Assembly (NCBI GenBank): GCA_003553085.1
Contig: PUPH01000031.1
Location: forward strand, 3 to 64,002
DNA length: 64,000 nucleotides
DNA from: Thermoplasmata archaeon
GTDB lineage: Archaea; Thermoplasmatota; Thermoplasmata; Halarchaeoplasmatales; Halarchaeoplasmataceae
Direction: 5' to 3'
Of this stretch, positions 11,435 to 53,226 are shown piece by piece. A program made the position numbers and the translations under genes. The notes under the pieces are model-generated. The model searched no databases, had not been told where the DNA came from, and saw only the letters and a program-made list of their open reading frames with translations. Within the stretch, counting starts at the first letter, position 1. Every line of letters begins with the position of its first letter.

Positions 11435-11537
11435 TTTTTTATCTCCTATGAACCGACGATTAACTTAGCTAGAATTTACCGGGTTAATAAACGTTGGTTG
11501 CAAATTTACATACCTTCTTCCTAAAACCAACTATATT

Positions 11538-11570
11538 CAAAAAAAAAATAAAAAAAGAAAGAAGGGTTTT
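11538..11570 (-). terminator. Long oligo-T tract after the S8 peptidase stop codon
   Basis: The minus strand reads AAAACCCTTCTTTCTTTTTTTATTTTTTTTTTG. Confidence 0.55.
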
Positions 11571-15476: not shown

Positions 15477-15655
15477 GCTAGACTCCACCTGCTAAGTTTT
15501 CTCCTCAAAACAAAATTTTAAGGCTTTGTTTAATCATGCAATGTAGTTATACAATATAAAGATTTACATCAAGATGGCATATAGAACAAACTATTTATCC
15601 ATGAATCCACAATATATTAGAAACCGCGATTAAAAATAGAAAGGAAAAGATGGGT

Positions 15656-17377: not shown

Positions 17378-18376
17378 TTCTGCTACGGGTTGAGCTAGGT
17401 GTCCTAGGCTAGCGATAGCGTGCCTGGTCGTATGGGTTATCTGTGGAAGTGTGAGTTTGTCCAGCGTGTCATCTGCCGTGTGATAGTAGGGGCTAAAGAC
17501 GGTTTCTATGGACAGAGTGGCATTGTATCCCTCGTCCCAAAAGCTGGAATGGTCTGAACGCCATTCAGTGCTGTCGTACTCATAGGTGAAGTTGATTCCT
17601 ATGTTATCATAGGCCTCGCTTACATCCGCCTTGTAATCCAGCATCCAGTTGGAGGGCGTATTTGCGTGAAGTGTGATGGCCAAGTCAGGTTCCGCGTATC
17701 CAACCATATCGTAATTGAGTTTACCCAACAACTGTTCCTCCGTTTCATCGATGTTAGAAGCATAGTAACTGCTACCGTGCAGTCCCTGTTCCTCCGCACC
17801 CCATAGTGCAAAACGGATGGTACGTTCAAAACTGTATTGGGACATTATCCTCGCAGCCTCTATAGTCACTGCTGAACCACTGCCGTTATCGTCTGCACCA
17901 GGAGCCGCCCCGCCCCAATTGTTTATACTATCAAGGTGCCCGCCGATGATATATGTCTGAGGCTCTAGGTCTGGATTGGTTCCAGGATGTACCGCTATAA
18001 CATTCGTGCTGCTGTGCCCACCAGATGTGAAGTTCTGCATATAGGTATCTAAACCGAAGGAGCTAAGTTCTTGATATGCCCATAGAGCTGCATCATCGAA
18101 ACCACTGGTACCGGTTAATCTGGTCGGTACGCCGTTTTCATCCTCAAAACTTTGTAAAGTATCGATGTAATCATATATATTTGATTCTTCGACTTGATCT
18201 ATCATCATCTGTATCTGAGGATCATGTCCTGGAAACACAGGTGTATCGAGGATATACTCATCGCTTTCATGGTCTAAAATAGGTCCTCCAGAGGTCAAAG
18301 ATACTACCTGTGAGAAAACAGATAGCACTAACGATAAACCGACAAGAAGAACCAGTGATTTCATCTTTTTTTTCAT
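15656..18376 (-). CDS. Secreted M28 zinc aminopeptidase. Domain order: signal peptide, M28 domain, shared C-terminal cassette (divergent copy).
   Basis: M28 metal-ligand motifs GGHLDS, GADDNGSGS, EEQGLHGS and DMVG. Only 31 bp separate it from the upstream M14-B gene, with a GGAG SD in the gap. Confidence 0.8.
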   Translation of the reverse strand: MKKKMKSLVLLVGLSLVLSVFSQVVSLTSGGPILDHESDEYILDTPVFPGHDPQIQMMIDQVEESNIYDYIDTLQSFEDENGVPTRLTGTSGFDDAALWAYQELSSFGLDTYMQNFTSGGHSSTNVIAVHPGTNPDLEPQTYIIGGHLDSINNWGGAAPGADDNGSGSAVTIEAARIMSQYSFERTIRFALWGAEEQGLHGSSYYASNIDETEEQLLGKLNYDMVGYAEPDLAITLHANTPSNWMLDYKADVSEAYDNIGINFTYEYDSTEWRSDHSSFWDEGYNATLSIETVFSPYYHTADDTLDKLTLPQITHTTRHAIASLGHLAQPVAEGDPPSITVTSPIGGEEWYAFEEEDITWTTEKGEDPIDGIEIWYSTDTGDSWYNIDSDIQDTGSYTWGVPNEDSLECKIRVRVVDSLGRWNEDISGVFAIHGIPPSAPSNLIVDHIGQATQVIFEDDVESGDLGYTTGQTDGASEWSIRTHGSAVGDYSWDFGDGNYNDPSNGGLSWLITPEIDLTDATEIEMTFMHWREFEDDGSIWDGGNLKISTDGPEGSWDLITDPNPAYDGTVEGGWDNPLEGEPAWGHSTDWEEVTVDLSGYEGESVWIRWDAGVDNYGSTHAGWRIDDILVTGEVSGDGDDHNLLTWDASPDDPDEVSHYNIYRSDEHTGPWDDSTLIDSLPADGSADYSYIDIGKGTADDVWWCYVVRAVGVNGLEEQNTDVGEETGYIGAFDIPLYADGDADGWNFVSYNLFPLYGDTSITAILNDPNTGIQGRYDQVMYYDAESHEWFSYVPGRDEHYNNLQDWDHTMGIWIRMTSDDTLTIEGYLLSSTDIVLHPGWNMVGMPSSTSGNHNLPGEVSCIGYFDDFVEYNLAYDHDPSNFEFSPGEGYWLYNDADQSVEWIIDY

Positions 18377-18383
18377 TTTTGAT

Positions 18384-18387
18384 CTCC
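18384..18387 (-). promoter_or_regulatory. Shine-Dalgarno GGAG for the M28 gene, inside the 31-bp gap after M14-B
   Basis: The minus strand reads TAAATGAGCATGTATATATCCAAGGAGATCAAAAATG. Confidence 0.5.
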
Positions 18388-18407
18388 TTGGATATATACA
18401 TGCTCAT

Positions 18408-20123
18408 TTAATATTCGATCGTCCAATCTACATCATGATCCGCGTCGTTGTACACCCAATAACCGCTACCGGGCGAGAACTCGAATCCACTGGCATCGGT
18501 ATAAGCGACGTTATACTCCTCACTTGCATCGAAGTATCCCACTGTCGTTACTTCCGCCGGTAGGTTGTGGTTCCCGGCTGTAGAGCTAGGTAGTCCCACC
18601 ATGTTCCATCCAGGATCCAGAGTTATGGTCGTAGTACCGGGTTCGTTACCTTCGATCGTTAGCGTATCGTCCACGTTCATCTGGATCCAGACACCCATGG
18701 TGTTGTCCCACGTACCTAGGTTGTTGAAGTGATCCGCTCTATCCGGTACATAAGAATACCAACGTCCAGAATCGAAGTACATAACTTTATCGTAATTACC
18801 GGCTATACCGTTATCCGGGTCCTCAAGTATATCCACTAGATCGGTGCTGCCGAGCTCAAGATTGAAGGATACGAAGTTCCAGCCGTCGGCATCTGCGGTC
18901 AACTGTATATCCATGGTAGTGGTTTCTGCACCCGGTTCCTGCACCGCGTTTGTGTTATCTTCCTCAATACCATTGGTACCTACCGCTCTAACGACATACC
19001 ACCAGAATATTTCATCAGCCGTACCTCTTTCGGGGTCGATATACTCGTAACCTGTAGAACCGTCGGCGGTAACACTGTCTATCAGGGTACTTCCGTCCCA
19101 CGGTCCATCACTGGATTCAGCTCGATAGATATTATAGTGACTGACTTCGTCAGGATCATCTGGACTAGCATCCCAGGTGATCAGATTGTCTTCGTCTCCA
19201 TCCGAGATGATGCCTTCCGCCGTCACCAGGATATCGTCGATACGCCAGCCCTGGGCACCACCATCATAATCTTCGACTCCAGCGTCCCATCTAAGCCATA
19301 TTGAGTCTCCGGCATATTCACTCAGATCTACCGTTACCTGTTCCCACCCCTGAGAATCAACCCAGGCTGGCTCTCCTTCTATGGGATTTTCAAATCCGGT
19401 TCCAAGGGTTACATCATAAGATGGGTCGGGGTTTTCGATCAAAGACCATTCTCCGTTGGGATCCGCACTTTCCACGGATATCTTTAGATTTCCTCCGTCG
19501 TAATAGTTCGTCCATGAGTCATCGTAATCGAAGTCCCTCCAGTGCTGGAATGTCAACTCCACCTCCTCGGCTTCTTCGGGTATATCGATCTCGGGAGATA
19601 TCAACCAGCTGACTTCTCCTACTTTCTCATAGCCTCCATCGCCCCAATCCCAGGAACTGTCTCCGACTATGGATCCGTGGTCTCTGATATCCCATTCGTT
19701 CGTGCCTTCACTGCTGCCTGTGGTATATCCAAGGTCCTCCGATGCATCATCATGGAATAATACTTCTTGTCCTGAACCAACATGCTGTACATCTAGATTT
19801 TCCGGAGGGTCTGGAGGTGCGCCTTCGATGGTGAAGACATCACTGATGTCTTCTCCACTCCTACCTACCGTGTCTATTACGTTCAACCTGACACGACATT
19901 CCGTACTATCTTCATTGGGTACGGTCCATGTATAGCTTCCCGTATCTGCTACTCCGGATCCGATAGATGCCCAGCTATATCCATCATCTACACTGTACCA
20001 TAGATCTATAGAATCGATAGGATCGTCCCCCTGTTCGGTAGTCCAAGTGATATCTTCTTCAGTGCCCGCGGTGAAGGTCTCTCCTCCTTCAGGTCGGTTT
20101 ATGGTGATATCCGGGGGATCCCC
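18408..20123 (-). repeat. Shared C-terminal cassette, copy 4
   Basis: Begins GDPPDITINRPEGGE and ends ...GYWVYNDADHDVDWTIEY. Confidence 0.8.
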
Positions 20124-21656
20124 CACCTCTTCCAGAACGATATCTATCCTCTGGCCCCATTCTTCACCGATGGTAAAATCTTGATCATTATGATCGGCAG
20201 AAATACGGAAGGTGTCGTCGGTCGTGTATCCACTATCTACAAGATTTCCAAAGTTCAATTCGTAGTAGCCGTTACTGTTCGTCCCGATGGAGATCGTTTC
20301 TGATGTATCGACGTTCTCTACCGTTACTGGAACATCCACCACAGAACCTCCTGAAGAATATTCGACCGTACCGTAAACCAGGTAGGGGACCGGAGGATGG
20401 AGGTGGTTTGTACCGTCTCCGAGATCTATATCGGCTATCCTTCCTTGATATATCAGGGCGTCATCAACGTCTTTATTGATGGTCATTATCTCATCTGGTG
20501 GTGGATAAAATCCATGACCTCCGGTTTCAAGTTCGAAAACCATCGAGAAAGCTCCGGTTTCATCATAGACCCAATCTCCAGCACCACCAGGTGCTGAGTA
20601 ACCGATCTCTTCTCCCGCCTGACCATAGCTGTAGGGATCATTCTCATCCCCCATCTGAGAGGTCAGAGAAGTCATATGTCCTGCCATCCCTCGGTACCAA
20701 CTATCATGGGGCGATGGATCAGTAGAATTACACCAAGGGATCAACATGGTCCCGGCATAGCTGTGGATGTTCTGATACGTGTCGATATCGTTTTCAAGTA
20801 TGAAATCCCTGAGAGACTTAGTCTCATACTCAGAAAACGGTGCCTCGCCGTGATAATCGTCTGCACCACCTCTTGAATTGCCGTCTTCCCAATGTATATC
20901 CCAATTCCGATTAAGATCTACACCTACAGCATCATCAGGGATCGTATCGTTACGGTTTTTCCGCCAATTATTTTGGTTTCCGTAATCGCCGTCACTATCA
21001 TAGATATACCCATCAGGATTGACCATGGGCATAACGTAGATCCTACGATTGTTGAGCATCCAGTGGATGGTCTCGTTGGAGTCGTATTCGTCCAGTATCC
21101 GCCACATGAAGTAGGCTGAAGCCTGAGTGGATGACCATTCTCTTGCGTGCATCGATCCATCCACAAGGAAACCAGGTTTGTGATCCACCTGTGTATCTTC
21201 GTCAGAGGTCACCTCCAGGACCCATAGATCTCTGCCCTCCCAGGACTGGCCTATGTTGATCTTCGATACAAGATCGGGATACTCGTCGACCAGGTCATCG
21301 TACCAATCATTCAACTCACTCACACTGGGATAGTGGTTGGCAAAAGGATAGTCGGTTTCAAGGATCTTTTCTCTGTCCTCTTCCTGCCTAATAACCTCGA
21401 CCTCCATACCTGAAGATTCCAGATAAGACAAGGTTGAATCATCGGTTTCAACTAATAGATTCATACCATCTCGCACCAATATTTCAGTATTGGCTTCGTT
21501 TATACTCTGTAAGTCCGCTAGAGATCTCATCTGGACTCCAGCTTTGATCACCTCTACATCTTCATCTTCGTAGTGGTTTACAGCTACAAAACAGACAGAA
21601 AACATCAAAAGCAGAACTACCGTTATTACCCCGAGGGGGATCTTTGTATTGTGCAT
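18408..21656 (-). CDS. Secreted M14 zinc carboxypeptidase (paralog B). Domain order: signal peptide, M14 domain, carboxypeptidase-regulatory-like domain, shared C-terminal cassette.
   Basis: SMHAREWS and NPDGY motifs. Collinear with and similar to paralog A. GGAGG SD 6 nt before the ATG. Confidence 0.85.
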   Translation of the reverse strand: MHNTKIPLGVITVVLLLMFSVCFVAVNHYEDEDVEVIKAGVQMRSLADLQSINEANTEILVRDGMNLLVETDDSTLSYLESSGMEVEVIRQEEDREKILETDYPFANHYPSVSELNDWYDDLVDEYPDLVSKINIGQSWEGRDLWVLEVTSDEDTQVDHKPGFLVDGSMHAREWSSTQASAYFMWRILDEYDSNETIHWMLNNRRIYVMPMVNPDGYIYDSDGDYGNQNNWRKNRNDTIPDDAVGVDLNRNWDIHWEDGNSRGGADDYHGEAPFSEYETKSLRDFILENDIDTYQNIHSYAGTMLIPWCNSTDPSPHDSWYRGMAGHMTSLTSQMGDENDPYSYGQAGEEIGYSAPGGAGDWVYDETGAFSMVFELETGGHGFYPPPDEIMTINKDVDDALIYQGRIADIDLGDGTNHLHPPVPYLVYGTVEYSSGGSVVDVPVTVENVDTSETISIGTNSNGYYELNFGNLVDSGYTTDDTFRISADHNDQDFTIGEEWGQRIDIVLEEVGDPPDITINRPEGGETFTAGTEEDITWTTEQGDDPIDSIDLWYSVDDGYSWASIGSGVADTGSYTWTVPNEDSTECRVRLNVIDTVGRSGEDISDVFTIEGAPPDPPENLDVQHVGSGQEVLFHDDASEDLGYTTGSSEGTNEWDIRDHGSIVGDSSWDWGDGGYEKVGEVSWLISPEIDIPEEAEEVELTFQHWRDFDYDDSWTNYYDGGNLKISVESADPNGEWSLIENPDPSYDVTLGTGFENPIEGEPAWVDSQGWEQVTVDLSEYAGDSIWLRWDAGVEDYDGGAQGWRIDDILVTAEGIISDGDEDNLITWDASPDDPDEVSHYNIYRAESSDGPWDGSTLIDSVTADGSTGYEYIDPERGTADEIFWWYVVRAVGTNGIEEDNTNAVQEPGAETTTMDIQLTADADGWNFVSFNLELGSTDLVDILEDPDNGIAGNYDKVMYFDSGRWYSYVPDRADHFNNLGTWDNTMGVWIQMNVDDTLTIEGNEPGTTTITLDPGWNMVGLPSSTAGNHNLPAEVTTVGYFDASEEYNVAYTDASGFEFSPGSGYWVYNDADHDVDWTIEY

Positions 21657-36235: not shown

Positions 36236-39200
36236 ATGGGTTTCTTAGACTCTATAGATAATTTACTGGATAAGGAAAAAAGAGTGTTGAATAAAGCACA
36301 AAAATACCTTGATAAATCTGAAGAACAACGCCAGGAAGGCGATATCTCAAAGGCGAAGGAACTGTGTGATAGAACATGGGATCTTCTCAAAAAGCACGAA
36401 GAAAACTTCTCAGAACAGCAGGAAGAGGTGTCTAAAGCTTTCGATCGATTAGGATGGCTGTACTACCATCTGGGCTACGAAGATCATGCACTTCACTCAG
36501 AAGACCAAGCCATCAGATATGATAATAACAACATCGAAGCTTTGAACCACAAAGCGTTGATCTTGACTCAGAAGGGGAGTCCTAGTAAAGGGTTGAAGTT
36601 GTTATCCCGAGCGCTTGAGATAGATCGCAAAAATAAGTATTCGTTGATAAATCGTGGAGACATCCTCACAAAGATGGGGAGGAAAGAAGAAGCGGTCAGG
36701 ACTTATGAAAAAGCTCTAGAAGTGGATGAAGACGATATATCCGTTTACGATAAGATACTCGAAATTGAACCAAGGAACGGTGAGATCTGGGCAAAAAGAG
36801 GGCTCGCCCTGAAAAGAGGAGGTAATTACGAGAAGGCCATTGAATCCTTCAACAAATCCCTCGAAATCAACCCAAATCAAGAAAAGATATGGCTGTATAA
36901 AGGTCTCACCTTAAGAGATATGGAAAAATTGAACGATGCAGTGGTTTGCTTCGATAACGGGCTGGAGATAAACCCGGATAATAAAGACCTTTGGAGCGCT
37001 AAAGGGACCACTCTACACCTATTGAAAAGGGACGAAGACGCATTGGAGGCTTTCAGCAGAGCTCTAGAGATAGATTCTGAAGACAAGGACCTCTGGAATC
37101 GAAAGGGGACCATATTGTATGAGATGGAACGTCACATAGAGGCAGTAGAAGCCTTCGACAAAGGTATCGCTATAGACCCCAGCGACGTGAGACTACTCAA
37201 CAACAAAAAGGAAGCTTTGAAGCCACTCGGTAGATACGAAGAGCTGATCAGAGTTTGTGATAGGATCCTTGAAAAGAATCCCTCCGATGCTGGAAGTCTG
37301 TATGATAAAGGTGTAGCTCTCCACAAGTTGGGAAAACCGGAAGAAGCTATAGCACAGCTGGAAGAAGCCCTGTCATATAATCCCAAAGACATCTACGCCC
37401 TGGAGAGGGAGAAGAAGATATACAAAGAACAGCAGGACTGGGAAAACGTTGTCCGTACTGCTGACCGTATCCTAGAATTTGAGCCCAACAACTGGGAGGC
37501 TTGCTATGATAAGGGTACATCATTGCTAAAGTTGAACAATCCACAAGGGGCGTTAGAAAGCTTTGAAGAAACCCTCAGGATAAAGGATAACGACCTAGAT
37601 GCTCTTGTGGGTAAGAAGGAAGCATTGAAATCACTGGGAAATTACGAAGAAGTGGTCTTCGTGTGTGATAGGATAATATCCATGGATCCTGACAACATAG
37701 AGGCTTACTTCGATAGGGCAAAATCACACGAAAAGCTGAGAGAATACGATAGAGCCATCCGAGATTATCGTAAGGGCCTTTCTTACGATCCTTCCAACGA
37801 TGAAGCATGGAACGACAAGGGTCTCTGCGAATATCGTTTGAAACGATATGAGGAGGCGCTAGAGAGTTTCGATAAAGCGATAGGTATCAATTCAGATGAT
37901 AAAAAATACTGGAACAATAAAGCTCACTGTTTGGTCAAATTGGAAAGGTACGAAGAGGCGATCAAATCCTACGATAAAGCTCTAGAGATCGACGTCAGCG
38001 ACGATAGGATATGGTACAGCAAAGGATTGGCCCTTGAGGGACTGAATCGATATGAAGAAGCCATCATATCATACGACAAGGCTTTGGAGATCGATGATGA
38101 AAACGCAAGAGTACTCTACAGTAAGGCGATAGCGTTGGAATGGTTGGACAGATACGAGGAGGCGGTGGAAGCCTTCGATAAATCATTGAAGATCAAACCT
38201 AACAACCGCTTCGCATACATCCGTAAAGGACTAGCCCTGGCCAACCTCGGCCGTCATGAAGATGCCGTTCAAGCCTACGATAGAGCTCTGGATATGCAAA
38301 GTCAGGACATCAAGTTATTGGAGAAAAAGAAAGACTCTTTGATAACCCTAACACGATGGAGCGATATCATAGAAACGTGCGATAGGATACTGGATATAGA
38401 TTCCAATAATCTACAAGCATGGAGGGATAAAGGCGAGGCTTTAAAAAAGCTAGGAGAGCCTCAAAGTGCTTTAGATTGTTTCGAAAGGGCATTGTCCATA
38501 CAAGAATCGGTTGTAGATCTGGTTAAGGCAAAGGATCTTCTAAAAGAGCTGAACATGCCCGAAGAAGTGGTTGAACACTGTGAACGTATAATCGAAGATG
38601 ATCCGGAAAATATCGAGGCATGGCAAGATAAGGCCATGGCCTTGAAGTTGCTCAAGAGAAGAGAGGAGGCACTAGAGGCTTTCGATGAGGCGCTAGACCT
38701 GGATCCCGATAACAAGAAGATGTGGCTGCACAGGGGCATGGTGTTCGAACACCTGGAACAATATGAAAACGCCATAAGATCTTACAATGAAGCCCAAGAA
38801 TTAGATCCTACCGATGTGATACCCATCGCACGTAAGGCAGAGTGTCTACGTAAGATGGAAAGATATTCAGAGGCCTCAGAATGGTTCGATAAAGCCATGG
38901 ATCTTGAACCCGAAAATACCCTATACATCAACCGGAAAGGAAGATGTTTGATAGAGATCGGAGAACTGGAGGAGGCTGATGAACTGTTCGAGAGATCATT
39001 GAACATAGACGACCAGAATGGCACCACCTGGAAATACAAAGGAATCCTCGCTGAAAAGTTGGAAAAATACGAGGAAGCGATCAGTGCCTTGGATACCGCT
39101 GTTAAACTAGGGATCGACGATAGTGAGGTATGGATAACCAAGGCTGAATGTTACGATTACCTCGGAAGGAAAAGGGATGCCATCGATACTTATGATAAGG

Positions 39201-40414
39201 CAATAGATCTATCTCCAGACGATGCTCATCTTTGGTTTAAGAAAGGCGAGTTACAGATGGAGATAGAAGATCACGCAGGTGCTCTGGAAAGCTTCGACGA
39301 GGCTACGGAGATAGATCCGGATTACGAAGAAGCATGGTTCGAGAAAGGACGTGTTTTAGAGGAGGTCAGTAGGTATCAGCGGGCGATAGAGGCATACGAC
39401 CGTGCCATCGGTTTAAAGTCAGAAGATAAATACGCCTGGAATAACAAAGGTCGAGTACTTATCGAAGTGGGTAAAACGGATAAGGCTATACGTGCATTCG
39501 AGAAGGCACTTGAACTCGACCCTGAGATGGAATCAGCTAGACATGGTCTGGACATAGCTAGAGAAAAGGAAGAGGAAAGGAAGTTAGAAGAGTACGCCAA
39601 ACGGATACTTGAATATGAATGTTCCAGGAATCGTGAGATCTCGAAAGAAGAAGCTTTCAAAAAATGCAATGTCCCCTATAACTACATAGACGATGTGTTC
39701 GGTTATCTATCACTACGTGAAGCCCTGGACATCGGTGCTTTAGATGAAGAAGAGAAAGACAAGTTGGAGAACGCTTCTCGAGCGGTATTGAAGAAACTAG
39801 CATTGGTATCTCGGGAAAGCCTGATAAAAAATGGGGTGAGGCTCTGTGACATAGTCACTAACTTCCCCGACAAATCGATACCGGAAGCCAAAAGGGTCCT
39901 TGAATACATCCGTGAAGTCGATTCAATGGATATCTCTGCCGAACAGATAGATGAAAAAACCGAACGTTTATTGAGGAAAAGGGTGCTGACGCTCCCTGAA
40001 GAAAAACGTGATTTCCTCACGCTGATCACCAATCTGAACGTGGGTATATATCAAGCGAAGAAGGTACTGGCCGCATTGAAGAAGTTCGAAGGAAAGGATT
40101 ATAAACCGCCCAGTACAGAGATATCGACTCTGGTACAGGAAGATTTCGTAAGAAAAGAAGATAAAGCGGAGATAGACACCGTTGGTGAAGAGCAAAAATC
40201 TGAAAAGCCGAAAAAGAAGGTGAAAAAGAAGGTGAGTTCCGAACCGGAGCCGGACTGTCATTTCTGTGGCAAAGCGACCAACTACAAACACGACTGCAAT
40301 GAACTACCTTTATGCCCTTCCTGTGAATCCAAACATGCTGGAGAATTCTGCCCAGAGTGTAGTGAATTGATCGGTTCCATTGACACCGACGAAGAAGACG
40401 ATATGATGCTCTAA
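36236..40414 (+). CDS. Giant TPR-repeat protein (1392 aa) with a non-TPR C-terminal region ending in a zinc ribbon
   Basis: More than 30 consecutive 34-aa TPR units. The C-terminus has CHFCGKATNYKHDCNELPLCPSCESKHAGEFCPECS. Confidence 0.8.
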   Translation: MGFLDSIDNLLDKEKRVLNKAQKYLDKSEEQRQEGDISKAKELCDRTWDLLKKHEENFSEQQEEVSKAFDRLGWLYYHLGYEDHALHSEDQAIRYDNNNIEALNHKALILTQKGSPSKGLKLLSRALEIDRKNKYSLINRGDILTKMGRKEEAVRTYEKALEVDEDDISVYDKILEIEPRNGEIWAKRGLALKRGGNYEKAIESFNKSLEINPNQEKIWLYKGLTLRDMEKLNDAVVCFDNGLEINPDNKDLWSAKGTTLHLLKRDEDALEAFSRALEIDSEDKDLWNRKGTILYEMERHIEAVEAFDKGIAIDPSDVRLLNNKKEALKPLGRYEELIRVCDRILEKNPSDAGSLYDKGVALHKLGKPEEAIAQLEEALSYNPKDIYALEREKKIYKEQQDWENVVRTADRILEFEPNNWEACYDKGTSLLKLNNPQGALESFEETLRIKDNDLDALVGKKEALKSLGNYEEVVFVCDRIISMDPDNIEAYFDRAKSHEKLREYDRAIRDYRKGLSYDPSNDEAWNDKGLCEYRLKRYEEALESFDKAIGINSDDKKYWNNKAHCLVKLERYEEAIKSYDKALEIDVSDDRIWYSKGLALEGLNRYEEAIISYDKALEIDDENARVLYSKAIALEWLDRYEEAVEAFDKSLKIKPNNRFAYIRKGLALANLGRHEDAVQAYDRALDMQSQDIKLLEKKKDSLITLTRWSDIIETCDRILDIDSNNLQAWRDKGEALKKLGEPQSALDCFERALSIQESVVDLVKAKDLLKELNMPEEVVEHCERIIEDDPENIEAWQDKAMALKLLKRREEALEAFDEALDLDPDNKKMWLHRGMVFEHLEQYENAIRSYNEAQELDPTDVIPIARKAECLRKMERYSEASEWFDKAMDLEPENTLYINRKGRCLIEIGELEEADELFERSLNIDDQNGTTWKYKGILAEKLEKYEEAISALDTAVKLGIDDSEVWITKAECYDYLGRKRDAIDTYDKAIDLSPDDAHLWFKKGELQMEIEDHAGALESFDEATEIDPDYEEAWFEKGRVLEEVSRYQRAIEAYDRAIGLKSEDKYAWNNKGRVLIEVGKTDKAIRAFEKALELDPEMESARHGLDIAREKEEERKLEEYAKRILEYECSRNREISKEEAFKKCNVPYNYIDDVFGYLSLREALDIGALDEEEKDKLENASRAVLKKLALVSRESLIKNGVRLCDIVTNFPDKSIPEAKRVLEYIREVDSMDISAEQIDEKTERLLRKRVLTLPEEKRDFLTLITNLNVGIYQAKKVLAALKKFEGKDYKPPSTEISTLVQEDFVRKEDKAEIDTVGEEQKSEKPKKKVKKKVSSEPEPDCHFCGKATNYKHDCNELPLCPSCESKHAGEFCPECSELIGSIDTDEEDDMML

Positions 40415-44355: not shown

Positions 44356-46437
44356 TTAAATGAGTCCGTACTTGGCTATCACGCTGGCAAAAACCAGAGC
44401 CACGATAGACATCAACTTTATCAATATGTTCAAAGAAGGACCTGAGGTATCTTTGAACGGGTCGCCGACAGTGTCACCTACAACTGCGGCCTTGTGAGCG
44501 TCCGAGCCCTTACCTCCATGGTGCCCCTGTTCTATGTACTTTTTGGCGTTATCCCATGCACCGCCTGCGTTGGCCATCATTATCGCAAGCACAAAGCCAG
44601 TACCCACAGACGCCATCAGGAAACCTCCCAATGCCGCAGGTCCGAGCAGTAAGCCGACTGCTACAGGTACTACTATGGCTAATATGCCGGGTATCACCAT
44701 CTCTCTGAGTGCTGATGCGGTGCTGAGATTTATCACCCTTTGATAGTCTGCATCAGCTTCGCCTTCTATTAGCCCGGGTATCTCTTTGAACTGCCTTCTG
44801 ACTTCCTTGACAATCTCGAAGGCTGACTTACCAACGGCCTTCATCGTGATGGCACAGAATATGAACGGTACCATAGCACCGAGGAAGATGCCCACGAGAA
44901 CGGGAGGCTCAAGGATGCTGAAGTCACCGATAGCGATGTCTACCCGTGTAGCATAAGCTGCTGTCAAAGTAAGGGCGGTCAAGGCTGCAGAGCCGATGGC
45001 GAATCCTTTTCCAGTGGCGGCAGTGGTATTTCCTAGGGAGTCCAAAGCATCGGTCCTATCCCTGACCTTGGGATCGAGTCCGCTCATCTCCGCAAGACCA
45101 CCTGCGTTATCCGCCACAGGACCATAAGCATCTGTCGAGAGTGTGACTCCCAGGGTTGAGAGCATACCGACCGCGGATATGGCTACTCCATAAAGCCCTG
45201 CTAAATAGAATGATGTGAGTATGGCTGCACAAACTATTATCACCGGGAACAGAGTACTTTCCATACCGCTCGCGATACCCTGTATGATGAACGTAGCAGG
45301 ACCCGTTTCGGTGGATTGTGCCAGTGTTTTGGTCGGTTTGTACCTATCTGAAGTATAATATTCCGTGAAATAGCCTATCAAAGAGCCCGCTACGAGTCCA
45401 GCTATCACCGCTCCCCATATACCCAGGTTATCGGGTGCGAGTAGATAAACTATGATAAAGGAAAAAACGGCAACGATAACTGCTGCACCATAAGTTCCAC
45501 GTCGTAGAGCATTCAACAACGCTTCTTGGCTTGCATCTTCCCTCGTCCTTACGAAGAATATGGCCACCATGGAAGCTATTATACCTGCAGCGGCGATAAG
45601 AAGGGGGATGGCGAATATTTCAGCACCCATACCATCCACGGGACTCTCCAACAAAGGAGTCATATCAGAGCCTTCATAGGCCATCCACCCGAGGGTAAGA
45701 GCCGCTATGATCGAGTTAGTGTATGATTCGTAAAGGTCGGCACCCATGCCGGCAACGTCGCCCACGTTATCACCGACGTTATCGGCGATCACTGCTGGGT
45801 TCCGAGGATCGTCTTCTGCAATGCCGGCCTCGACTTTACCAGCCAAGTCTGCGCCTACATCGGCAGCTTTGGTGTAGATACCTCCTCCCACACGGGCGAA
45901 GAGTGCTATAGAACTTGCACCGAAACCGAATCCGGCTATGAACGTCAGGGAATCCTCCAGCCCCACCATATAATCCGTTAATAAGAGTACGGAACTCAAT
46001 CCTAGAAGTCCAAGGCTGACCACGGACATACCCATGACCGCACCACCCCTGAATGCTATACGAAGTGATTTATCTAGACTTTTTCGGGCAGCCTGTGTCG
46101 TGGGTGCACTGGAATTGGTCGCGGTGATCATCCCAAGATATCCTGCGGTAGCGGATAATATCGCACCCACCAAGAAAGCTAACGCGGTATAGGGTGCATG
46201 TCCATCAGCTACATCCATGCCCGCTAGCAATATAGCCACTATGGCTACAAAGATAGCTATGTATTTGTACTCAGTATGTAGATATGTTTTAGCCCCTACC
46301 TGCACTTGACCAGCGATCTTTTTCATCAAACTCGTTCCACAGTCCTGTTTGGAGATATATTTTGTAAAGTATCCCGCCAACACTATTCCGAGCAAAGATG
46401 CCAATATCGCTACTATGCCGTACTCTATGCCATTCAT
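44356..46437 (-). CDS. hppA: Membrane-bound proton-translocating pyrophosphatase
   Basis: About 16 TM helices. Signature motifs GGG(I)[28 protein letters not shown] and [13 protein letters not shown]. Confidence 0.9.
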
Positions 46438-46558
46438 TTTAACACCTGATTGATTAAAGGCACTGAAATTTAGTATTTATATTTTTTCGATGTTCTGTGA
46501 TAAATCCATCGTATTTTATTTTATGATCTACAACGGAAAAGACCTAATCATTATGGAT

Positions 46559-47938
46559 TCATCCGGAAACGAAAGACAAGTCCTCCACGCGTACATACGG
46601 CAACTCCATGCAAAGCACGGTGACTACGAGCTCAATGTCTGAAGATATATTCGATATATTTGTAAAGAGGTCGAAAACATTTCCAGATACCATCATCTGC
46701 TTCAGCGGATGTACTATCTCACCACCTTTGATCATATGTCCACCTTTGACTACTCCCGAAAAATCACCGCTGACCGGATCGACATCTCCAGAAAATCTAT
46801 TGATCAGAACTCCGTGCTCAACTTGTTCGATCATACTATCATATCCGATGTTCCCCGGTTTGACCACCAAGTTCGTTGGATCTATATAGGGTACCGACCG
46901 TGGCCCTCCGGAGGCGTGCCCAGTCGATACGGTCTCCATGGCACTGGCAGTATAGCTATTGTGAAACAACGACTTCAGTACCCCGTCTTCAACGACGGTC
47001 ATCTTTGGAGTGGGCAACCCTTCACGGTCGAAAGATCGGCTCCTCAACGCATCCTTCTTCGATGCATCATCGATCAATGTGAAGGATCCCGAAGCGATCT
47101 GCTCCTCCAACTTATCTCCCATGGGACTCAATCCCTTCACCACCCTATTTCCTTTCAAGGGGTATAGTAACCCCATGAACAAGATTTGTGCAAGGGCGTG
47201 TGGAGAGAAGATACCAACACCTTCGAAACTTTTACCCTTTTCAGCACCGAGGTTATCGACTGCGGCCAAAACCAGCTCTCTGGCAACACTCTCTACATCT
47301 ATGTCCTTGATCGTTATGGAACCGCCGGCTTTAACATCCATGTTGGATACCTCACCATGGGATGATGCCAATCCGATACCGAGATAGTGGAAACCGCTGG
47401 ACCGCTCGGATTCGGCTATACCCTTCGAGTTGATAACAGCCCTTTCTACGTCGTGGGATGCAAAAAAACCTTCGTTGAATCTGAACCTATCATCCGCTTC
47501 TAGAGCGGTATGAAGGAAGTTTTTTCCATACTCCAAGCCATCTTCGACCCCGAAATTCTCGATATCTTTGTCGTAGAGTCCATCTAATTTCTTGACTTTC
47601 ATCGGCGATGGTATATTATTATGCTTATCTGGTATCGAGGACCGGGCTAGCTTGACGGCTTCCTTTATCTTGTTTATGATAGCATCTTTGTCCAAAGAAT
47701 TGAGAGATGTGAATCCAAGCTTGCCATCTTGAATATAACGTATGCCCACCTGCTCCTTCTCATGGCATCTAGACATGTTGATCTCATCCCGTTGTATGCC
47801 CACATCTATGTTCTTGTCGGAACCCATATACAGTTCGATATCTCCGGGCACATCGACCTTTTCTAATATTTCCGCACCTAGATCCAGTAACTTTGACAAA
47901 TGAATACCTCCTCTACTTTCCTCCCACGGTGGCTTCAC
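46559..47938 (-). CDS. pmbA: PmbA/TldE-family protein (metallopeptidase-like, no HExxxH), copy 1
   Basis: Overall TldD/PmbA (U62) architecture without the HExxxH motif. Downstream partner of tldD-1 with overlapping ends. Confidence 0.7.
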   Translation of the reverse strand: MKPPWEESRGGIHLSKLLDLGAEILEKVDVPGDIELYMGSDKNIDVGIQRDEINMSRCHEKEQVGIRYIQDGKLGFTSLNSLDKDAIINKIKEAVKLARSSIPDKHNNIPSPMKVKKLDGLYDKDIENFGVEDGLEYGKNFLHTALEADDRFRFNEGFFASHDVERAVINSKGIAESERSSGFHYLGIGLASSHGEVSNMDVKAGGSITIKDIDVESVARELVLAAVDNLGAEKGKSFEGVGIFSPHALAQILFMGLLYPLKGNRVVKGLSPMGDKLEEQIASGSFTLIDDASKKDALRSRSFDREGLPTPKMTVVEDGVLKSLFHNSYTASAMETVSTGHASGGPRSVPYIDPTNLVVKPGNIGYDSMIEQVEHGVLINRFSGDVDPVSGDFSGVVKGGHMIKGGEIVHPLKQMMVSGNVFDLFTNISNISSDIELVVTVLCMELPYVRVEDLSFVSG

Positions 47939-49298
47939 ATCTCATATTCGGTCCGCCGCCATCCACCTTCGCGCTCTGGAACTTACCGCAATAGCCCGAA
48001 CCCATGCTGAACTCGAAGTTGTCTGCTACCGCGTCTACACTCCTGAGTACATCGAAGCCAGAACCAGAGATGGATACTCCTCGTAGTAGTTCTGTCAATT
48101 CACCGTTCTCTATACGCCATGCCTTCTCGACTCCGAATGTAAACTCAGCATTGGCATCGGCCTGCCCACCTTTTGCACCTTCTAGATAATATCCATCCTT
48201 AGTTTCCTCTATCATCTCATCCACACCGTATTCTCCTGTCTCGATGAACGTGTTCGTCATACGTATTATCGGTGGGTCGGAATACTGATAAGCTCGTGCG
48301 TTGCCCCTAGGTGTCATCTCGAGTACCCGGGCGGTCTCAAGATCACACAGGTATCCTTTCAGCACACCGTCTTTTATTAGCTCAGTTCGTTGAGACAACG
48401 TTCCTTCGTCATCTACCGGCGTCCATCCTGCTGCGTGTGGGTCCGCCACCCCATGATCCACTAGGGTGACCAATTCACTCGCTACCTTCTTCCCCAATTT
48501 ATCCTGTGCAACGGAGCCCGAGAGTACAAAATCAGCTTCCACCGTATGTCCGATGGCTTCGTGTGCTATCAACCCGACCAGCTCCGGATTCAGGATCACC
48601 TTAGCGGGACCACCTTTGGGATGTTCGGCTTTTAAGAGTCTTTGAGCCGACCCAACGGCCTTATCCGCCATCTCATGAGGTGTACTTTTAGCGAACAAGT
48701 CGTCCCATCCACCGGTGACCCCTCTGCTTTCGATCCCCGATATCTTTTCACCATGAAGGTTTGCATAAGCTATCGTATAAAAATCCACTTTTTCATCGTG
48801 TATCTCCACCTCGGTCCCAAAGCTGTTGACGATAAACTTGTCGTCCTGCATCTCGTTCCAAAGACATTTGGCAGAGTTGATGGATTTTTTATTCCTCATC
48901 TCCGAGTCTAGTTCTTTCAATAATTCTATCTTCTTTTCGATAGGATGATCTGTAACACTATCGTTCACCTCTGCACGAAACACTCCGGAGCAAGGGATGA
49001 CATCACCGATTTCGCCTACCTTTTGTGTTTTCAACCGTGAGGTGATACGTGCCGCCTTCTCCGCTCGTTGGATGGTGTTGATTATATCTTTGTCATCCAT
49101 CTTACTGGTGCTGCTGAACCCCCAGACACCGTCATGAAGAACTCTCACCCCGATACCAGAGTAGGTGGACGAGTGTAGGTCCTCTACATCGCCCCTTACT
49201 ATCTCTATCTTCTTCTGCTCTCTAGAATGATACCTTAGCTCAACATAGGCCGCCTGGCTCTTCTCTACTAACTTCGATAGCTTATCTTTCATATTCAC
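47913..49298 (-). CDS. tldD: TldD family metalloprotease, copy 1
   Basis: HEAIGHTVEAD (HExxxH), C-terminal GxC motif and the U62 family pattern. Confidence 0.75.
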   Translation of the reverse strand: MNMKDKLSKLVEKSQAAYVELRYHSREQKKIEIVRGDVEDLHSSTYSGIGVRVLHDGVWGFSSTSKMDDKDIINTIQRAEKAARITSRLKTQKVGEIGDVIPCSGVFRAEVNDSVTDHPIEKKIELLKELDSEMRNKKSINSAKCLWNEMQDDKFIVNSFGTEVEIHDEKVDFYTIAYANLHGEKISGIESRGVTGGWDDLFAKSTPHEMADKAVGSAQRLLKAEHPKGGPAKVILNPELVGLIAHEAIGHTVEADFVLSGSVAQDKLGKKVASELVTLVDHGVADPHAAGWTPVDDEGTLSQRTELIKDGVLKGYLCDLETARVLEMTPRGNARAYQYSDPPIIRMTNTFIETGEYGVDEMIEETKDGYYLEGAKGGQADANAEFTFGVEKAWRIENGELTELLRGVSISGSGFDVLRSVDAVADNFEFSMGSGYCGKFQSAKVDGGGPNMRCEATVGGK

Positions 49299-50623
49299 TT
49301 ACCCGAGATGGTTACATCCTTCAATTTGACCGAAGGAAGCTCGATGTTTATAGTAGCAGATCCGATGCTGTCATAGATCTTCTTGTGATCATCACCCAAC
49401 TCCATGGTATGCAATGATCCGGGTAGATTACCTGATATCATCAGACCTTCTAAACGTCCCTTTTTGATACCATCTTCCACCAACCATGCGGGATTGGCCA
49501 CCACACTAAAGTCACCGCTTGCAGGACTGGATGTATGGGCACCCATGACATTGTCCACCAATATCGTTCTACCTGCAAACAGTTCCTCTCTCGGTATATC
49601 CTCACCACTCATCATCACGTTCCTACTGCCTATCTGAGGGGGTGATTTAAAGGATGGGCGTACTCCATTGGCAGTACTCTTTGTGCCGCTTTGTACAGCC
49701 TCTTTAAGATCGTAAAAGAAGTTGTCCAATATTCCTCCGGATATAAGAGATACTGGTGAGCTGAGTACACCCTCATCGTCGAAGGGGAAACTGCCAAGCC
49801 CCCAATTAGATGTGGGATCTTCCACCAGATCGATGTATCCTGCGGCCACTTCATCCCCTACTCTATCTTCATACACAGATTTACCTTTCCTAACGTTCTC
49901 ACCGTCAAAGGATGGGAGCAATCCGAAGTGGATCAATATCCCCATGGCGTCGGGGCTTAAAATTACCGGGATCTTATCTCCTGGGATCTCCGCTAGATCT
50001 TTCATAGAAACTACCCTTTCACCTGCGGCGATACCTACCTCTTCAAAATCTATATCGTACTTTCTACTGCTAGATGATTCACTGGCCATAAGAGATGTCT
50101 TCTCACCGGGCAAAGTCGCGGCCACGCCTCCAGTGATGATGGATCCGTCCTGTGAGTAAAAAAGACCTTTGGTATTGCCGACGATCACGTTTCCTGAAGC
50201 TATCTTCAATGTACCTCGAGAGGGGAGTATATCGTCATCAACGGATGAGGCACCATCTACCATCTGTTGAGCTATCTCAATTCCATCGTCCATTGCCCTT
50301 TCCACTTTTTTATCGTACGTCTTTACTGCTGGTGGTTTCTCGCCCATCGGGAGCTCCATCTCCGTCTTTGGAGATAAAGATGTTAGCTCTATGGCTCTTT
50401 TTACACCGATCTCTTCTTTTCCAGGTGCGCAGTATCCGAAGCCGACTCTTCCGTCCTTAAATACCCTGATGCCTAAACCCATATCCTCATACTCATTACT
50501 GTCGGATACCTCTCCGTTCATTATCGAATAGCTAAGGATCCTTGAACGGATTCCATAAACATCTCCTGTCAACCCCTTTTTCTTCAACTGCTCTAAACAC
50601 TCTTTGATACCCTCTTCGATCAT
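49295..50623 (-). CDS. pmbA: PmbA/TldE-family protein, copy 2
   Basis: U62-like without HExxxH. 4-nt overlaps with both flanking genes. Confidence 0.7.
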   Translation of the reverse strand: MIEEGIKECLEQLKKKGLTGDVYGIRSRILSYSIMNGEVSDSNEYEDMGLGIRVFKDGRVGFGYCAPGKEEIGVKRAIELTSLSPKTEMELPMGEKPPAVKTYDKKVERAMDDGIEIAQQMVDGASSVDDDILPSRGTLKIASGNVIVGNTKGLFYSQDGSIITGGVAATLPGEKTSLMASESSSSRKYDIDFEEVGIAAGERVVSMKDLAEIPGDKIPVILSPDAMGILIHFGLLPSFDGENVRKGKSVYEDRVGDEVAAGYIDLVEDPTSNWGLGSFPFDDEGVLSSPVSLISGGILDNFFYDLKEAVQSGTKSTANGVRPSFKSPPQIGSRNVMMSGEDIPREELFAGRTILVDNVMGAHTSSPASGDFSVVANPAWLVEDGIKKGRLEGLMISGNLPGSLHTMELGDDHKKIYDSIGSATINIELPSVKLKDVTISGK

Positions 50624-52020
50624 TCTCTACCACCTACCGTGACCTGGGAGATGAGGGTGTTACCCCCACCATCGGTGACCGATGCACTCTGACCCTTTCC
50701 ACAGTGTCCGATCCCCATACCAGTCTCTTTTGTGATACCTACGATGTTCTGTAGTGTTTCAAGAGTAAATCCGTTAAAACTTACGTTCCTCAGTGGTCTC
50801 CCTATCTCTCCGTTCTCTATGAGATATGCGACCTGTGCGTTGAATTGGAAGGTACCCTGGGCGGTGTTCACCTGTCCACCGCTTGTAGATCTTGCATAGA
50901 TACCCTTGTCTATATCTTCTATCAATTCATCAAAGACCATATCACCGGCTTCCATGATGGTGTTACTCATCCTTACCAAGGGTTTGACACGGAAGTCCTC
51001 GGCTCTAGCACCACCGTTGGGTTCCATGTTCAGCTTCCATGCATTTTCACGGTCCAGTATGAAATCGTTCAGCACCCCGTCTTTGACCAGTACACGGTTC
51101 TTCGCTCGTGTTCCCTCGTCGTCGAAGGGGAAACTCCCGTAACCGTCCATCGTTGGATCATCCTTGATGGTGACTATCTCGGAGGCTACCTTCTCACCTA
51201 TCTTTCCCTTCAAACAACTGTTACCGCTGGAAACCAGGTCGCCCTCTGCGGCGTGGCCGAAGGCTTCATGGGAGAATACACCGGTAAGGTGTGGATCCAT
51301 TACCAAAGGTAACTTTCCCGAAGGCGGACTCTTTGCTTCTAAAAGGGCTCCCAATCTGTCCAGTAGGATATCGGCCTTCTCGAATGCCTCACCGCTCAAC
51401 TCGAAGCCGCCGGTTCCCCCGATGGCTTCGGTAGCCATCTGTACCGTATCGCTTTTACCGGTGACTATCATATAGGTTACCAGTCGAGGTATCTCCATGG
51501 TCACGTGCGTACCTTCACTGGTGATTATCTCCTTTTCCACCAGTAGATCTCTGTATCGTAGATCGGTCGATCTGACGATATCGCTCTTTAGATGGGTTTC
51601 CAACTCCTGTAAAAAATCCAGCTTCTCCTCGGGACTCACATCAAGAAAGCTGTCTTTCATGGGATATACAGCCTTCTCCTGCAAAGGCTCCACCTCTGCC
51701 AGTCCAGTTCTATCTTTTTTCAGCTTATCACTGTTCTTCGCCATGGATAACGCTCTTTCCAGCGATCGTTCTAGTGAAGATAGATCAGCAGTACCTACAT
51801 AACCCCATCCATCACCATATAATACCCTGGTCATGGCACCTTCTTCTTCCCCCTGTATCACCGTTTCCGGAACTCCATCCTTTAGATAAAGGATCTTCCT
51901 GTGCCACTTTTCCTTTCGTATATCACAATACTGAGCACCCTTCTGAAGGATACTTTGTATGAGCTCTTTTTCTTCCATCGCTTGCGAAGAGGACCTTGGG
52001 GATAAAAGTATTTTGTGCAA
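50620..52020 (-). CDS. tldD: TldD family metalloprotease, copy 2
   Basis: HEAFGHAAEGD (HExxxH). The start may be the internal Met (MEEKELIQ). Confidence 0.75.
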   Translation of the reverse strand: MHKILLSPRSSSQAMEEKELIQSILQKGAQYCDIRKEKWHRKILYLKDGVPETVIQGEEEGAMTRVLYGDGWGYVGTADLSSLERSLERALSMAKNSDKLKKDRTGLAEVEPLQEKAVYPMKDSFLDVSPEEKLDFLQELETHLKSDIVRSTDLRYRDLLVEKEIITSEGTHVTMEIPRLVTYMIVTGKSDTVQMATEAIGGTGGFELSGEAFEKADILLDRLGALLEAKSPPSGKLPLVMDPHLTGVFSHEAFGHAAEGDLVSSGNSCLKGKIGEKVASEIVTIKDDPTMDGYGSFPFDDEGTRAKNRVLVKDGVLNDFILDRENAWKLNMEPNGGARAEDFRVKPLVRMSNTIMEAGDMVFDELIEDIDKGIYARSTSGGQVNTAQGTFQFNAQVAYLIENGEIGRPLRNVSFNGFTLETLQNIVGITKETGMGIGHCGKGQSASVTDGGGNTLISQVTVGGRE

Positions 52021-52035
52021 ATGTGTACAATATTA

Positions 52036-53226
52036 TTAACGATCTCTCATCATCGCCTGAATGGTTCTAACGACATCTACCGTTTCATGGACATCGTGGA
52101 CCCTCAGTATCCCGACCTTCTTTTGGACCGCCAGTGCCGCAACCGCAAGAGAGCCGTAAAGTCGCTCATCTGCCTTTTTGTCCAACACCTGTCCTAAAAA
52201 GCTTTTACGAGAAGCTCCCAGTAATACCGGATAACCCATGGAATTGAACTCCTCCAAACGTGAGATGATCTCCAGGTTATGATGTATCCTCTTTCCGAAT
52301 CCGATACCAGGATCGATAATTATATTTGATGGGGATATACCGGCCTCCTCGGCTTGGGAAGCCCTGTTTCTCAGGTATCGATATATCTCGGTGATCACAT
52401 CATCGTATCTAGGGTCGTCCTGCATGGTTTCAGGTGTTCCCTGCATGTGCATGATCACCACGGGTACGTCCAGGGTTGCAACGGTTTCGCGCATACCTTC
52501 ATCCCTTAACCCATAAACATCATTGATCATGGAGGCACCTGCATCCACGGCGGCTTCAGCTACCTTCGGTCGATGGGTGTCGATACTCAGCGGTACGTCT
52601 ATCTTATCCACGAGACTATCGATCACTGGCAGCACCCTATCGATCTCATCTTCTACGGATACACGTCCACTTCCAGGCCTGGTACTTTCACCGCCTATAT
52701 CTATTATATCGGCACCTTCGCCCACCATATCCTGAGCTCGTTCGATGGCTCTGTCCAGATCGTAGTTTACACCACCATCATAGAAGCTATCCGGAGTCAC
52801 GTTCAATATCCCCATCACTCGTGTTCCTTCACCGGGAACGGGAGGTTCGGCGGGATCGTCAAAATTCTTTAAAGCGGTCTTTACCTCTTCAGATAAGTTC
52901 GGTAATCCCAGGGGTTGTTCTTCGAGTTTTCTAAGGACCCTTCTATAATGAGAGAGGGTCCCCATCATGATCACTTCGCTCTCATCTTCGGATACGTTCA
53001 ATGCGGCCCAGGATACCGCAGCCTCCGCTCCTGCGGCTAAAAACTCTTGCTTTAAGATGTTGGCAGCTCTTGGATCGAGTCCAGATGCTCTGATCAAGCG
53101 GTACGTCCCTTTGGGTGCCATGATCTCTACACCCCTTGGATCACACCCCATGCGTTCTAGTTCATCGGCTATACGATCTTTTGAGAGTATCCGAGTTTCG
53201 AACATATTCTCAGGTAATATGAACAC
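52036..53226 (-). CDS. folP: Dihydropteroate synthase with an unusual N-terminal extension of about 110 aa
   Basis: Pterin-binding core GILNVTPDSFYDGG...DIIDIGGESTRPG...NDV...GIGFGK. The residues before the core match no family I recognise. Confidence 0.8.
   Translation of the reverse strand: MFILPENMFETRILSKDRIADELERMGCDPRGVEIMAPKGTYRLIRASGLDPRAANILKQEFLAAGAEAAVSWAALNVSEDESEVIMMGTLSHYRRVLRKLEEQPLGLPNLSEEVKTALKNFDDPAEPPVPGEGTRVMGILNVTPDSFYDGGVNYDLDRAIERAQDMVGEGADIIDIGGESTRPGSGRVSVEDEIDRVLPVIDSLVDKIDVPLSIDTHRPKVAEAAVDAGASMINDVYGLRDEGMRETVATLDVPVVIMHMQGTPETMQDDPRYDDVITEIYRYLRNRASQAEEAGISPSNIIIDPGIGFGKRIHHNLEIISRLEEFNSMGYPVLLGASRKSFLGQVLDKKADERLYGSLAVAALAVQKKVGILRVHDVHETVDVVRTIQAMMRDR

Follow-up and report, generated by a model that had tools for sequence, protein, structure and literature searches.

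Two anciently diverged TldD/TldE-type gene pairs lie head to tail in a four-gene cluster of a Thermoplasmata archaeon

The stretch of DNA analysed here (64,000 nucleotides of a Thermoplasmata archaeon contig, hereafter the window) carries on its minus strand, at 46559-52020, four real, uninterrupted genes in the order D1-E1-D2-E2, where D1 and D2 encode TldD-type metalloprotease subunits and E1 and E2 the TldE/PmbA-type, non-catalytic partners. Their products probably form two independent canonical TldD/TldE heterodimers, D1-E1 and D2-E2, most likely co-transcribed. The two pairs are anciently diverged and belong to separate subfamilies of the PmbA/TldD family, and their adjacency is, among the matches listed, particular to the small immediate clade of the window. 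The cluster amounts to a local peculiarity of gene order in a family that is well known, not to a new system, and nothing in the sequence points to a new mechanism. No further TldD/PmbA genes are found elsewhere in the 64,000 nt.

The longest open reading frames of the four genes span 50620-52020, 49295-50623, 47913-49298 and 46559-47938. The overlaps of 4, 4 and 26 nt given in the initial annotation are true of these longest frames, but the value of 26 nt is an artefact of choosing them, and three of the starts are revised by the orthologs. In the ortholog alignment, D1 (50620..51978, 452 aa; orthologs 451-453 aa) starts at the position of ATG 51978 and not at TTG 52020, to which its longest frame reaches. 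Its stop overlaps the start of E1 (49295..50623, 442 aa) in an ATGA, the sole firm overlap in the cluster, which is kept in all relatives. D2 occupies 47913..49298 when read from GTG 49298 (461 aa, 4-nt overlap with E1), or is 459 aa long and separated from E1 by a 2-nt gap when read from ATG 49292, the start that its orthologs suggest; in all complete relatives, this junction is at most 5 nt long or overlapping. The orthologs of E2 (445-446 aa, with the N-terminus MSELLELG) align to residue 14 of the longest frame in the window, which begins at GTG 47938; this residue is the in-frame TTG 47899, giving a protein of 446 aa encoded at 46559..47899. A Shine-Dalgarno-like AGGAGGT can be read in the sequence 6 nt upstream of this TTG (47906..47912, minus strand), and the ATG of E2 in the relatives is also preceded by GGAGG-like strings. 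Because the ortholog-supported start follows AGGAGGT, the genes at the D2/E2 junction do not overlap but are 13 nt apart, with a ribosome-binding site in between. The four genes are tightly packed whichever starts apply.

All four proteins match PmbA_TldD Pfam domains (E values of 1e-57 to 1e-68). D1 and D2 match the first, second and third PmbA_TldD domains (PF01523, PF19290 and PF19289) over their full length, all above the gathering score, while E1 matches all three domains and E2 the first and the third. The first gene has the motif HEAFGH and the third HEAIGH, as originally read, and neither E1 nor E2 contains HExxxH, GxCGK or RMxNT when both sequences are checked for these motifs. When aligned with E. 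coli TldD (5NJ5_A), D1 (E 3e-54) places HEAFGHAAEGD, at residue 251 of its 466-aa frame, on the metal site HEAVGHGLEGD (residues 262-272), and D2 (E 5e-45) places HEAIGHTVEAD (residue 246) on the same segment. The fragments GHCGK in D1 and GYCGK in D2 align to the GVCGK region around Cys454 and Lys456. Thus, both D proteins keep HExxxHxxExD, RMxNT and GxCGK, aligned to H262/E263/H267/E270/D272 and C454/K456 of the E. coli enzyme, the roles of which are taken from its solved structure (PMC5810440); among them are the catalytic Glu, the His/His/Cys set of metal ligands and the Glu, Asp and Lys of the clamp. E1 is closest by sequence to the structures 6J6A (a TldD/PmbA family protein; E 1e-28) and 1VL4 from Thermotoga maritima (1e-26), and E2 to 6J6A (5e-31), followed by E. 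coli PmbA (5NJ5_B, 4e-23). Both 6J6A and 1VL4 are, unlike the heterodimer, single-protein structures from which nothing partner-specific can be transferred, and a literature search on 6J6A returned nothing relevant.

Among the closest characterised systems, E. coli TldD/TldE is a heterodimer that forms a closed shell (PDB 5NJ5; Ghilarov et al. 2017, PMC5810440). The proteins of the window share its three-domain family, D1 and D2 aligning end to end with TldD, and E1 and E2 aligning with PmbA (TldE) and likewise having no metal site. In E. coli the tldD and pmbA genes are unlinked, whereas in the window the E gene of each pair comes immediately after its D gene and the two pairs adjoin. The presence of multiple tldD/tldE pairs in a genome is common and already published (Hu et al. 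2012, PMC3497727), which goes part of the way to the refutation named in the initial annotation, although their adjacency is a feature of the small clade described here. Sulfolobus solfataricus, also an archaeon, has two such pairs, Sso0660/Sso0661 and Sso1151/Sso1152, with an HEAIGH-type motif and the GxC cysteine (PMC3497727), but there, judged by the locus numbers, the pairs are found at two loci, whereas those of the window abut. In addition, with NF040952, the equivalog model of archaeal TldD, D1 reaches 341 bits and D2 295, below the cut-off of 635. Both are also below the cut-off of 513 for the E. coli TldD equivalog NF008006 (about 195-196 and 167 bits, respectively), as are E1 and E2 (62 and 103 bits) below that of 438 for the PmbA equivalog NF008268. 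D1 and D2 are members of the TldD family (MEROPS U62/M103) and not equivalogs of the characterised enzymes, and since the scores of all four proteins are far below the NCBIfam equivalog cut-offs, the same function as that of the E. coli or Sulfolobus enzymes stays putative. A literature search on TldD paralogs of Thermoplasmatota found nothing.

The split between the two pairs is ancient. D1 and D2 are 33% identical, and E1 and E2 26.5%, whereas D1 shares 47% identity with proteins from Methanocella, and D2 47-50% with its orthologs in Nitrososphaerales, Asgard archaea and many bacteria, so that each D protein is closer to distant orthologs than the two are to each other. In a neighbour-joining tree, the D and E subtrees mirror each other, the D1 clade matching the E1 clade and the D2 clade matching that of E2, with orthologs in other phyla. 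The partners are consistent as well: 73 of 73 complete gene pairs of the D2 type among the matches listed have an E2-type partner, and D1-type genes at least about 43% identical to D1 have an E1-type partner wherever inspected. In the relatives, among the matches listed, E1-type genes are always directly downstream of D1-type genes, and E2-type genes downstream of D2-type ones. We infer the pairings D1-E1 and D2-E2 from this co-inheritance, that is, from adjacency and the mirrored phylogeny. That a single tldD-tldE pair was recently duplicated in tandem, which the repeated D-E-D-E order and nothing else would suggest, is hardly conceivable, as it is contradicted by the pairwise identities and the tree, as well as by a sister genome that keeps the pairs at separate loci.

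In the sister genome, the metagenome-assembled genome GCA_018335095.1, contig 76 carries D1E1 and contig 5 carries D2E2. These stand-alone pairs (loci L169 and L088), an example of those in other Thermoplasmatota, are direct orthologs of the pairs in the window (D1 being 72% and D2 59% identical), and they share the order of D followed by E and, in D1E1, the ATGA overlap. Their surroundings are different, with DUF2238 and MatE genes next to one pair and NAD kinase and radical SAM genes next to the other, instead of folP and the H+-pyrophosphatase (H+-PPase) gene. Outside the clade, the sample, taken among the matches listed, comprised 80 loci from GTDB found with a D2-type profile and 80 from metagenomes found with a D1-type profile, and in none of these 160 does more than one pair occur within 8 kb on either side. 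One locus (L091) that seemed to carry two D genes was rejected, as its HEKVGH is a chance string at a non-catalytic position of an E1-type protein. The D-E-D-E cluster with the same synteny is complete in four relatives (L001, L171, L172 and L173) and partial in a fifth (L174), always located between folP and the H+-PPase gene. An assembly artefact is ruled out, since the arrangement is common to independent assemblies from different projects.

Neither pair shows signs of decay, a possibility that had been raised initially. In each of the four complete relatives, all four genes are uninterrupted, with proteins 58-80% identical in amino-acid sequence, and in the window no frame is shifted and no metal ligand is missing from D1 or D2. 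The dN/dS values calculated against a 97.6%-identical relative are 0.18 for D1, 0.21 for E1 and 0.17 for D2 (in the last case over the 340 codons present in the partial relative L174), indicating purifying selection. Pseudogenisation of one pair is ruled out by the open frames and kept ligands, together with these ratios and the four intact complete relatives. The presence of two differentiated pairs, as originally proposed, is upheld, and both are predicted to be functional, as supported by their sequences.

The cluster is flanked by folP (52036-53226) and the H+-PPase gene (44356-46437), in agreement with its initial placement. Upstream of D1, a BRE/TATA-like, promoter-like element, CAAAAnnCTTTTATC (52001..52015, minus strand), is conserved; its C, AAA and CTTTTATC do not vary between the window and four relatives, in which the intergenic sequence around it has diverged. 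The centre of the TATA lies ~27 nt before ATG 51978, which suggests, by the usual geometry of archaeal promoters, that the D1 mRNA may be leaderless or carry a very short leader. The intergenic region that ends the unit (46438..46558) includes a T-rich stretch, a putative terminator, and the separate promoter of the H+-PPase gene, GAAAAAATATAAATACT (about 46472-46489), which, as well as its AGGTG ribosome-binding site, is invariant in five genomes. This region also carries in the window a 63-nt insertion compared to the other genomes.

Because the BRE/TATA-like motif upstream of D1 is invariant and the junctions do not exceed 13 nt, the four genes are likely to be expressed as one transcript. 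Archaeal promoters inside coding sequences are known, and one located in the 3' end of E1 would allow the pairs to be transcribed separately, in which case their adjacency would have no functional meaning. This seems unlikely in view of the E1/D2 junction, which is short or overlapping in every complete relative. In addition, inspection by eye of the last 40 nt of E1, just upstream of D2, reveals no TATA-like (TTTAWA-like) motif, and the single conserved promoter-like motif found for the cluster is that upstream of D1.

The preferred explanation is that of two independent and most likely co-transcribed heterodimers. If the solved E. coli enzyme is taken as the model, D1-E1 and D2-E2 would each form a closed hollow shell, in which the TldD subunit would hold Zn or Fe by the two His of HExxxH and the C-terminal Cys, and unfolded peptides would be threaded into the cavity and degraded largely regardless of their sequence. 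The pairs, found at different genome sites in related archaea, would have been set head to tail by a rearrangement in the clade of the window, landing between folP and the H+-PPase gene. The resulting single unit would most likely be transcribed from the promoter conserved ahead of D1, and the downstream genes would be translationally coupled by way of the ATGA overlap, the gap of at most 5 nt, and the 13-nt gap with its Shine-Dalgarno site. We infer a physiological role in cytoplasmic peptide turnover. A link to the secreted peptidase array (M14, S8, M28 and M14 at 8291-21656), which the initial annotation had brought in, is speculation, as the array lies about 25 kb away with unrelated housekeeping genes in between.

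The initial annotation had left a choice between two complexes and one hetero-oligomer of four different subunits. The former fits the data, with D1E1 and D2E2 being independent units in the 160 sampled loci and in the sister genome, while nothing points to the latter. Mixed complexes, either swapped (D1-E2 and D2-E1) or of four subunits, with co-transcription setting the subunit proportions, would agree with the tight linkage under apparently one promoter and with a gene order that persists, at up to 42% amino-acid divergence, in the four complete relatives and the partial one; moreover, E. coli TldD and TldE can each homodimerise, so that the choice of subunit is not absolute (PMC5810440). 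Such complexes are nevertheless very improbable, since D-E units are separate everywhere else sampled and the tree of the D proteins matches that of the E proteins, while the solved structure shows two subunits closed into a shell, with no assembly of higher order (PMC5810440), and the low identity of E1 and E2 makes interchangeable interfaces unlikely.

The adjacency kept across relatives of 58-80% identity could reflect selection for co-expression, hinting at a functional link between the pairs. One may speculate that they were joined under one promoter through joint work, either as a two-stage degradation line with complementary preferences for length or sequence, or by subunit exchange yielding up to four heterodimers; this is a rather remote prospect, which, if true, would be the first functional coupling between TldD/E paralog pairs. 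There is also a small chance that one pair is not a housekeeping enzyme, the other being the general peptidase, and serves instead, for instance, in leader-peptide removal for a modified peptide or in a non-peptidase hydrolysis like that of TldD/E-like enzymes of natural-product pathways. Microcin B17 is matured by TldD/E (PMC5810440), TldD-like proteins appear in part of the literature on modified-peptide biosynthesis, and the deep divergence of the pairs is compatible with different substrates. Against this, the neighbouring genes (folP, H+-PPase, rpoE, spt4, ribosomal proteins and TFB) provide no biosynthetic context, the protease site is complete in both TldD subunits, and stand-alone pairs of both subfamilies occur widely, in housekeeping surroundings of various kinds.

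With two independent heterodimers as the preferred explanation, the value of the analysis lies mainly in annotation: what appears as a "double TldD/E operon" consists of two old pairs, each inherited independently, whose juxtaposition is specific to the clade, and for which three start codons have been corrected and a likely promoter has been identified. A lineage with two distinct, putatively co-expressed pairs could be suited for comparing the substrate range of the two subfamilies.

The four consecutive minus-strand genes that the initial annotation described as a tldD-pmbA-tldD-pmbA operon are borne out by the ORF list and by PmbA_TldD Pfam matches in all four products (C-terminal domain E-values from 1e-57 to 1e-68), each of which also matches solved TldD/PmbA structures. 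They are the TldD-type D1 (ORF 50620–52020, 466 aa), the TldE/PmbA-type E1 (49295–50623, 442 aa), D2 (47913–49298, 461 aa), and E2 (46559–47938, 459 aa); no further member of the family was found within the 64-kb window. In HMMER alignments, the motifs HEAFGHAAEGD, RMSNT, and GHCGK of D1 and HEAIGHTVEAD, RMTNT, and GYCGK of D2 coincide with the HExxxH site and the Cys-ligand/clamp-Lys region of E. coli TldD (5NJ5_A), in which roles have been described for His262, Glu263, His267, Glu270, Asp272, Cys454, and Lys456 (PMC5810440). Inspection thus confirmed HEAFGH and HEAIGH in D1 and D2, which share the catalytic-residue layout of the E. coli enzyme, whereas the sequences of E1 and E2 contain none of HExxxH, RMxNT, or GxCGK, as expected of TldE/PmbA. 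None of the four proteins reaches a curated NCBIfam equivalog threshold; they are PmbA/TldD family members below that level.

The overlaps of 4, 4, and 26 nt first proposed for the junctions stand only in part. The ATGA overlap of D1 and E1 is firm and kept in all D1E1 pairs examined, while D2 starts either at GTG 49298, giving a GTGA overlap with E1, or at ATG 49292, which leaves a 2-nt gap and matches most orthologs (MKD...). The N terminus of E2 orthologs (MSELLELG; 445–446 aa) aligns at residue 14 of the long ORF, where an in-frame TTG (47899) follows a ribosome-binding site, AGGAGGT (47912–47906, minus strand), at a distance of 6 nt; with that start, the D2/E2 junction is a 13-nt spacer carrying this site rather than a 26-nt overlap. 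Since orthologs of D1 (451–453 aa) begin at the position of ATG 51978 (MEEKELIQ), TTG 52020 is just an extension of the ORF.

Across five genomes, the folP–D1 intergenic sequence has diverged apart from an invariant block, CAAAAnnCTTTTATC (52015–52001, minus strand), whose T/A-rich core is centred ~27 nt before ATG 51978. As this is the usual spacing from an archaeal TATA box to the transcription start, the D1 mRNA is likely leaderless or near-leaderless. The E1/D2 junction is an overlap or at most 5 nt in all complete relatives, with no intergenic space before D2, and visual inspection of the final 40 nt of E1 revealed no TATA-like motif. Downstream of E2, the H+-pyrophosphatase (H+-PPase) gene is preceded by a promoter block and a ribosome-binding site of its own, which are strongly conserved. 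The most economical model would be one promoter serving D1-E1-D2-E2, with the second to fourth genes initiated via translational coupling or Shine-Dalgarno sites. The block upstream of the H+-PPase gene, GAAAAAATATAAATACT...AGGTGTTA, is strikingly conserved, being invariant in five genomes (it lies in the intergenic region 46438–46558 of the window, with equivalents in L001 and L171–L173); in the window alone, a 63-nt insertion including a T-rich stretch lies between the E2 stop and this block.

The same four genes occur with the same order and flanks in four relatives (loci L001, L171, L172, and L173): TFB, HD-domain protein, zinc-ribbon protein, folP, D1, E1, D2, E2, H+-PPase, rpoE, spt4. 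Neighbours in the window include TFB, rpoE, spt4, S24e, S27ae, and Alba; together with the origins of close homologs, they assign it to the Thermoplasmata. Amino-acid identities between L001 and the window are 78% for D1, 64% for E1, 71% for D2, and 58% for E2. In a fifth relative, L174, with DNA 97.6% identical, the sequence stops inside D2; dN/dS values against it (0.18 for D1, 0.21 for E1, and 0.17 for D2, from small counts) are consistent with purifying selection. E2, which the L174 sequence does not reach, is taken to be functional, since all four complete relatives carry it intact.

In the product of the adjacent folP (dihydropteroate synthase; 52036–53226, minus strand), the Pterin_bind domain (residues 138–377) is preceded by an extra ~135 aa at the N terminus that match no Pfam family; the extension is conserved, since folP in the relatives is equally long (388–389 aa). 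At 8291–21656 on the minus strand, four consecutive, very large peptidase genes (906–1305 aa) encode an M14 carboxypeptidase, an S8 subtilase, an M28 aminopeptidase, and another M14 carboxypeptidase, all with long C-terminal regions lacking Pfam matches. They look like an extracellular protein-degradation set. The link to these peptidases that the initial annotation suggested would be compatible with a peptide-degrading lifestyle, but they lie 25 kb from the TldD/TldE cluster with no operon link.

Could the cluster have arisen by tandem duplication? This origin is ruled out by several observations. D1 and D2 are only 33% identical, and E1 and E2 26.5%. Orthologs of D2 at 47–50% identity occur in Nitrososphaerales, Asgard archaea, Planctomycetota, Myxococcota, Leptospira, Thermotogae, and others, and those of D1 across Thermoplasmatota (57–80%) and in Methanocella (~47%). 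A tree built by neighbour joining from 72 D and E proteins separates D from E at its first split, and each half then shows a deep division into D1/E1 and D2/E2 types, with matching topology. Judged by best BLAST match, the partner is of E2 type in each of the 73 complete pairs that include a D2-type gene among the matches listed, and D1-type genes at least ~43% identical to D1 have an E1-type partner where inspected. D1E1 and D2E2 are therefore old, co-evolving two-gene units. More distant D1-like genes (~40% identity; L107, L112, and ~35 other metagenome loci, mostly marine) have partners of a further type, and since these TldE proteins score slightly higher against E2 than against E1, they suggest at least a third D/E subfamily.

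Among the matches listed, 80 species-representative genome loci (D2-type profile) and 80 metagenome loci (D1-type profile) each contain a single D-E pair (or, where the contig ends, only a D), and none of the 160 has a second pair within the stretches of up to 8 kb covered on either side. L091, a candidate D-D locus, was rejected: one supposed "D" (9323–10663) is an E1-type TldE ortholog with a chance HEKVGH ~40 residues downstream of the catalytic-motif position, so that a simple HExxxH regex miscalls this protein as TldD. In the next-closest relatives the pairs are separate, D1E1 adjoining aldo-keto reductase and gyrase genes (L084, L085) and D2E2 adjoining NAD kinase and a radical-SAM gene (L086–L088), and the sister MAG GCA_018335095.1 has both, D1E1 on contig 76 (L169) and D2E2 on contig 5 (L088). 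Having two pairs is thus the ancestral state and a common one, several tldD/tldE pairs in one genome having already been published (Hu et al. 2012, PMC3497727), whereas, among the matches listed, only their side-by-side placement is particular to the small clade of the window. The stand-alone D2E2 pairs of L087 and L088 are flanked by large AAA_16/TPR proteins; the window encodes a 1392-aa protein consisting almost entirely of TPR repeats (36236–40414, plus strand), a parallel that may be coincidental.

With the solved E. coli TldD/TldE (PMC5810440) as a model, each pair would form a hollow heterodimeric shell, in which the TldD subunit would bind the metal and cut unfolded peptides entering the cavity, largely independently of sequence, and the TldE subunit would complete the shell. 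The initial annotation had also raised a hetero-oligomer of four different subunits. Such a particle, like swapped D1-E2 and D2-E1 dimers, is improbable, and nothing supports either; independent inheritance of the pairs and co-evolution of their subunits make D1-E1 and D2-E2 the expected complexes. The cluster is thus real and was correctly recognised, but it is ordinary: two TldD/TldE pairs of known type, apparently brought together by a lineage-specific rearrangement.
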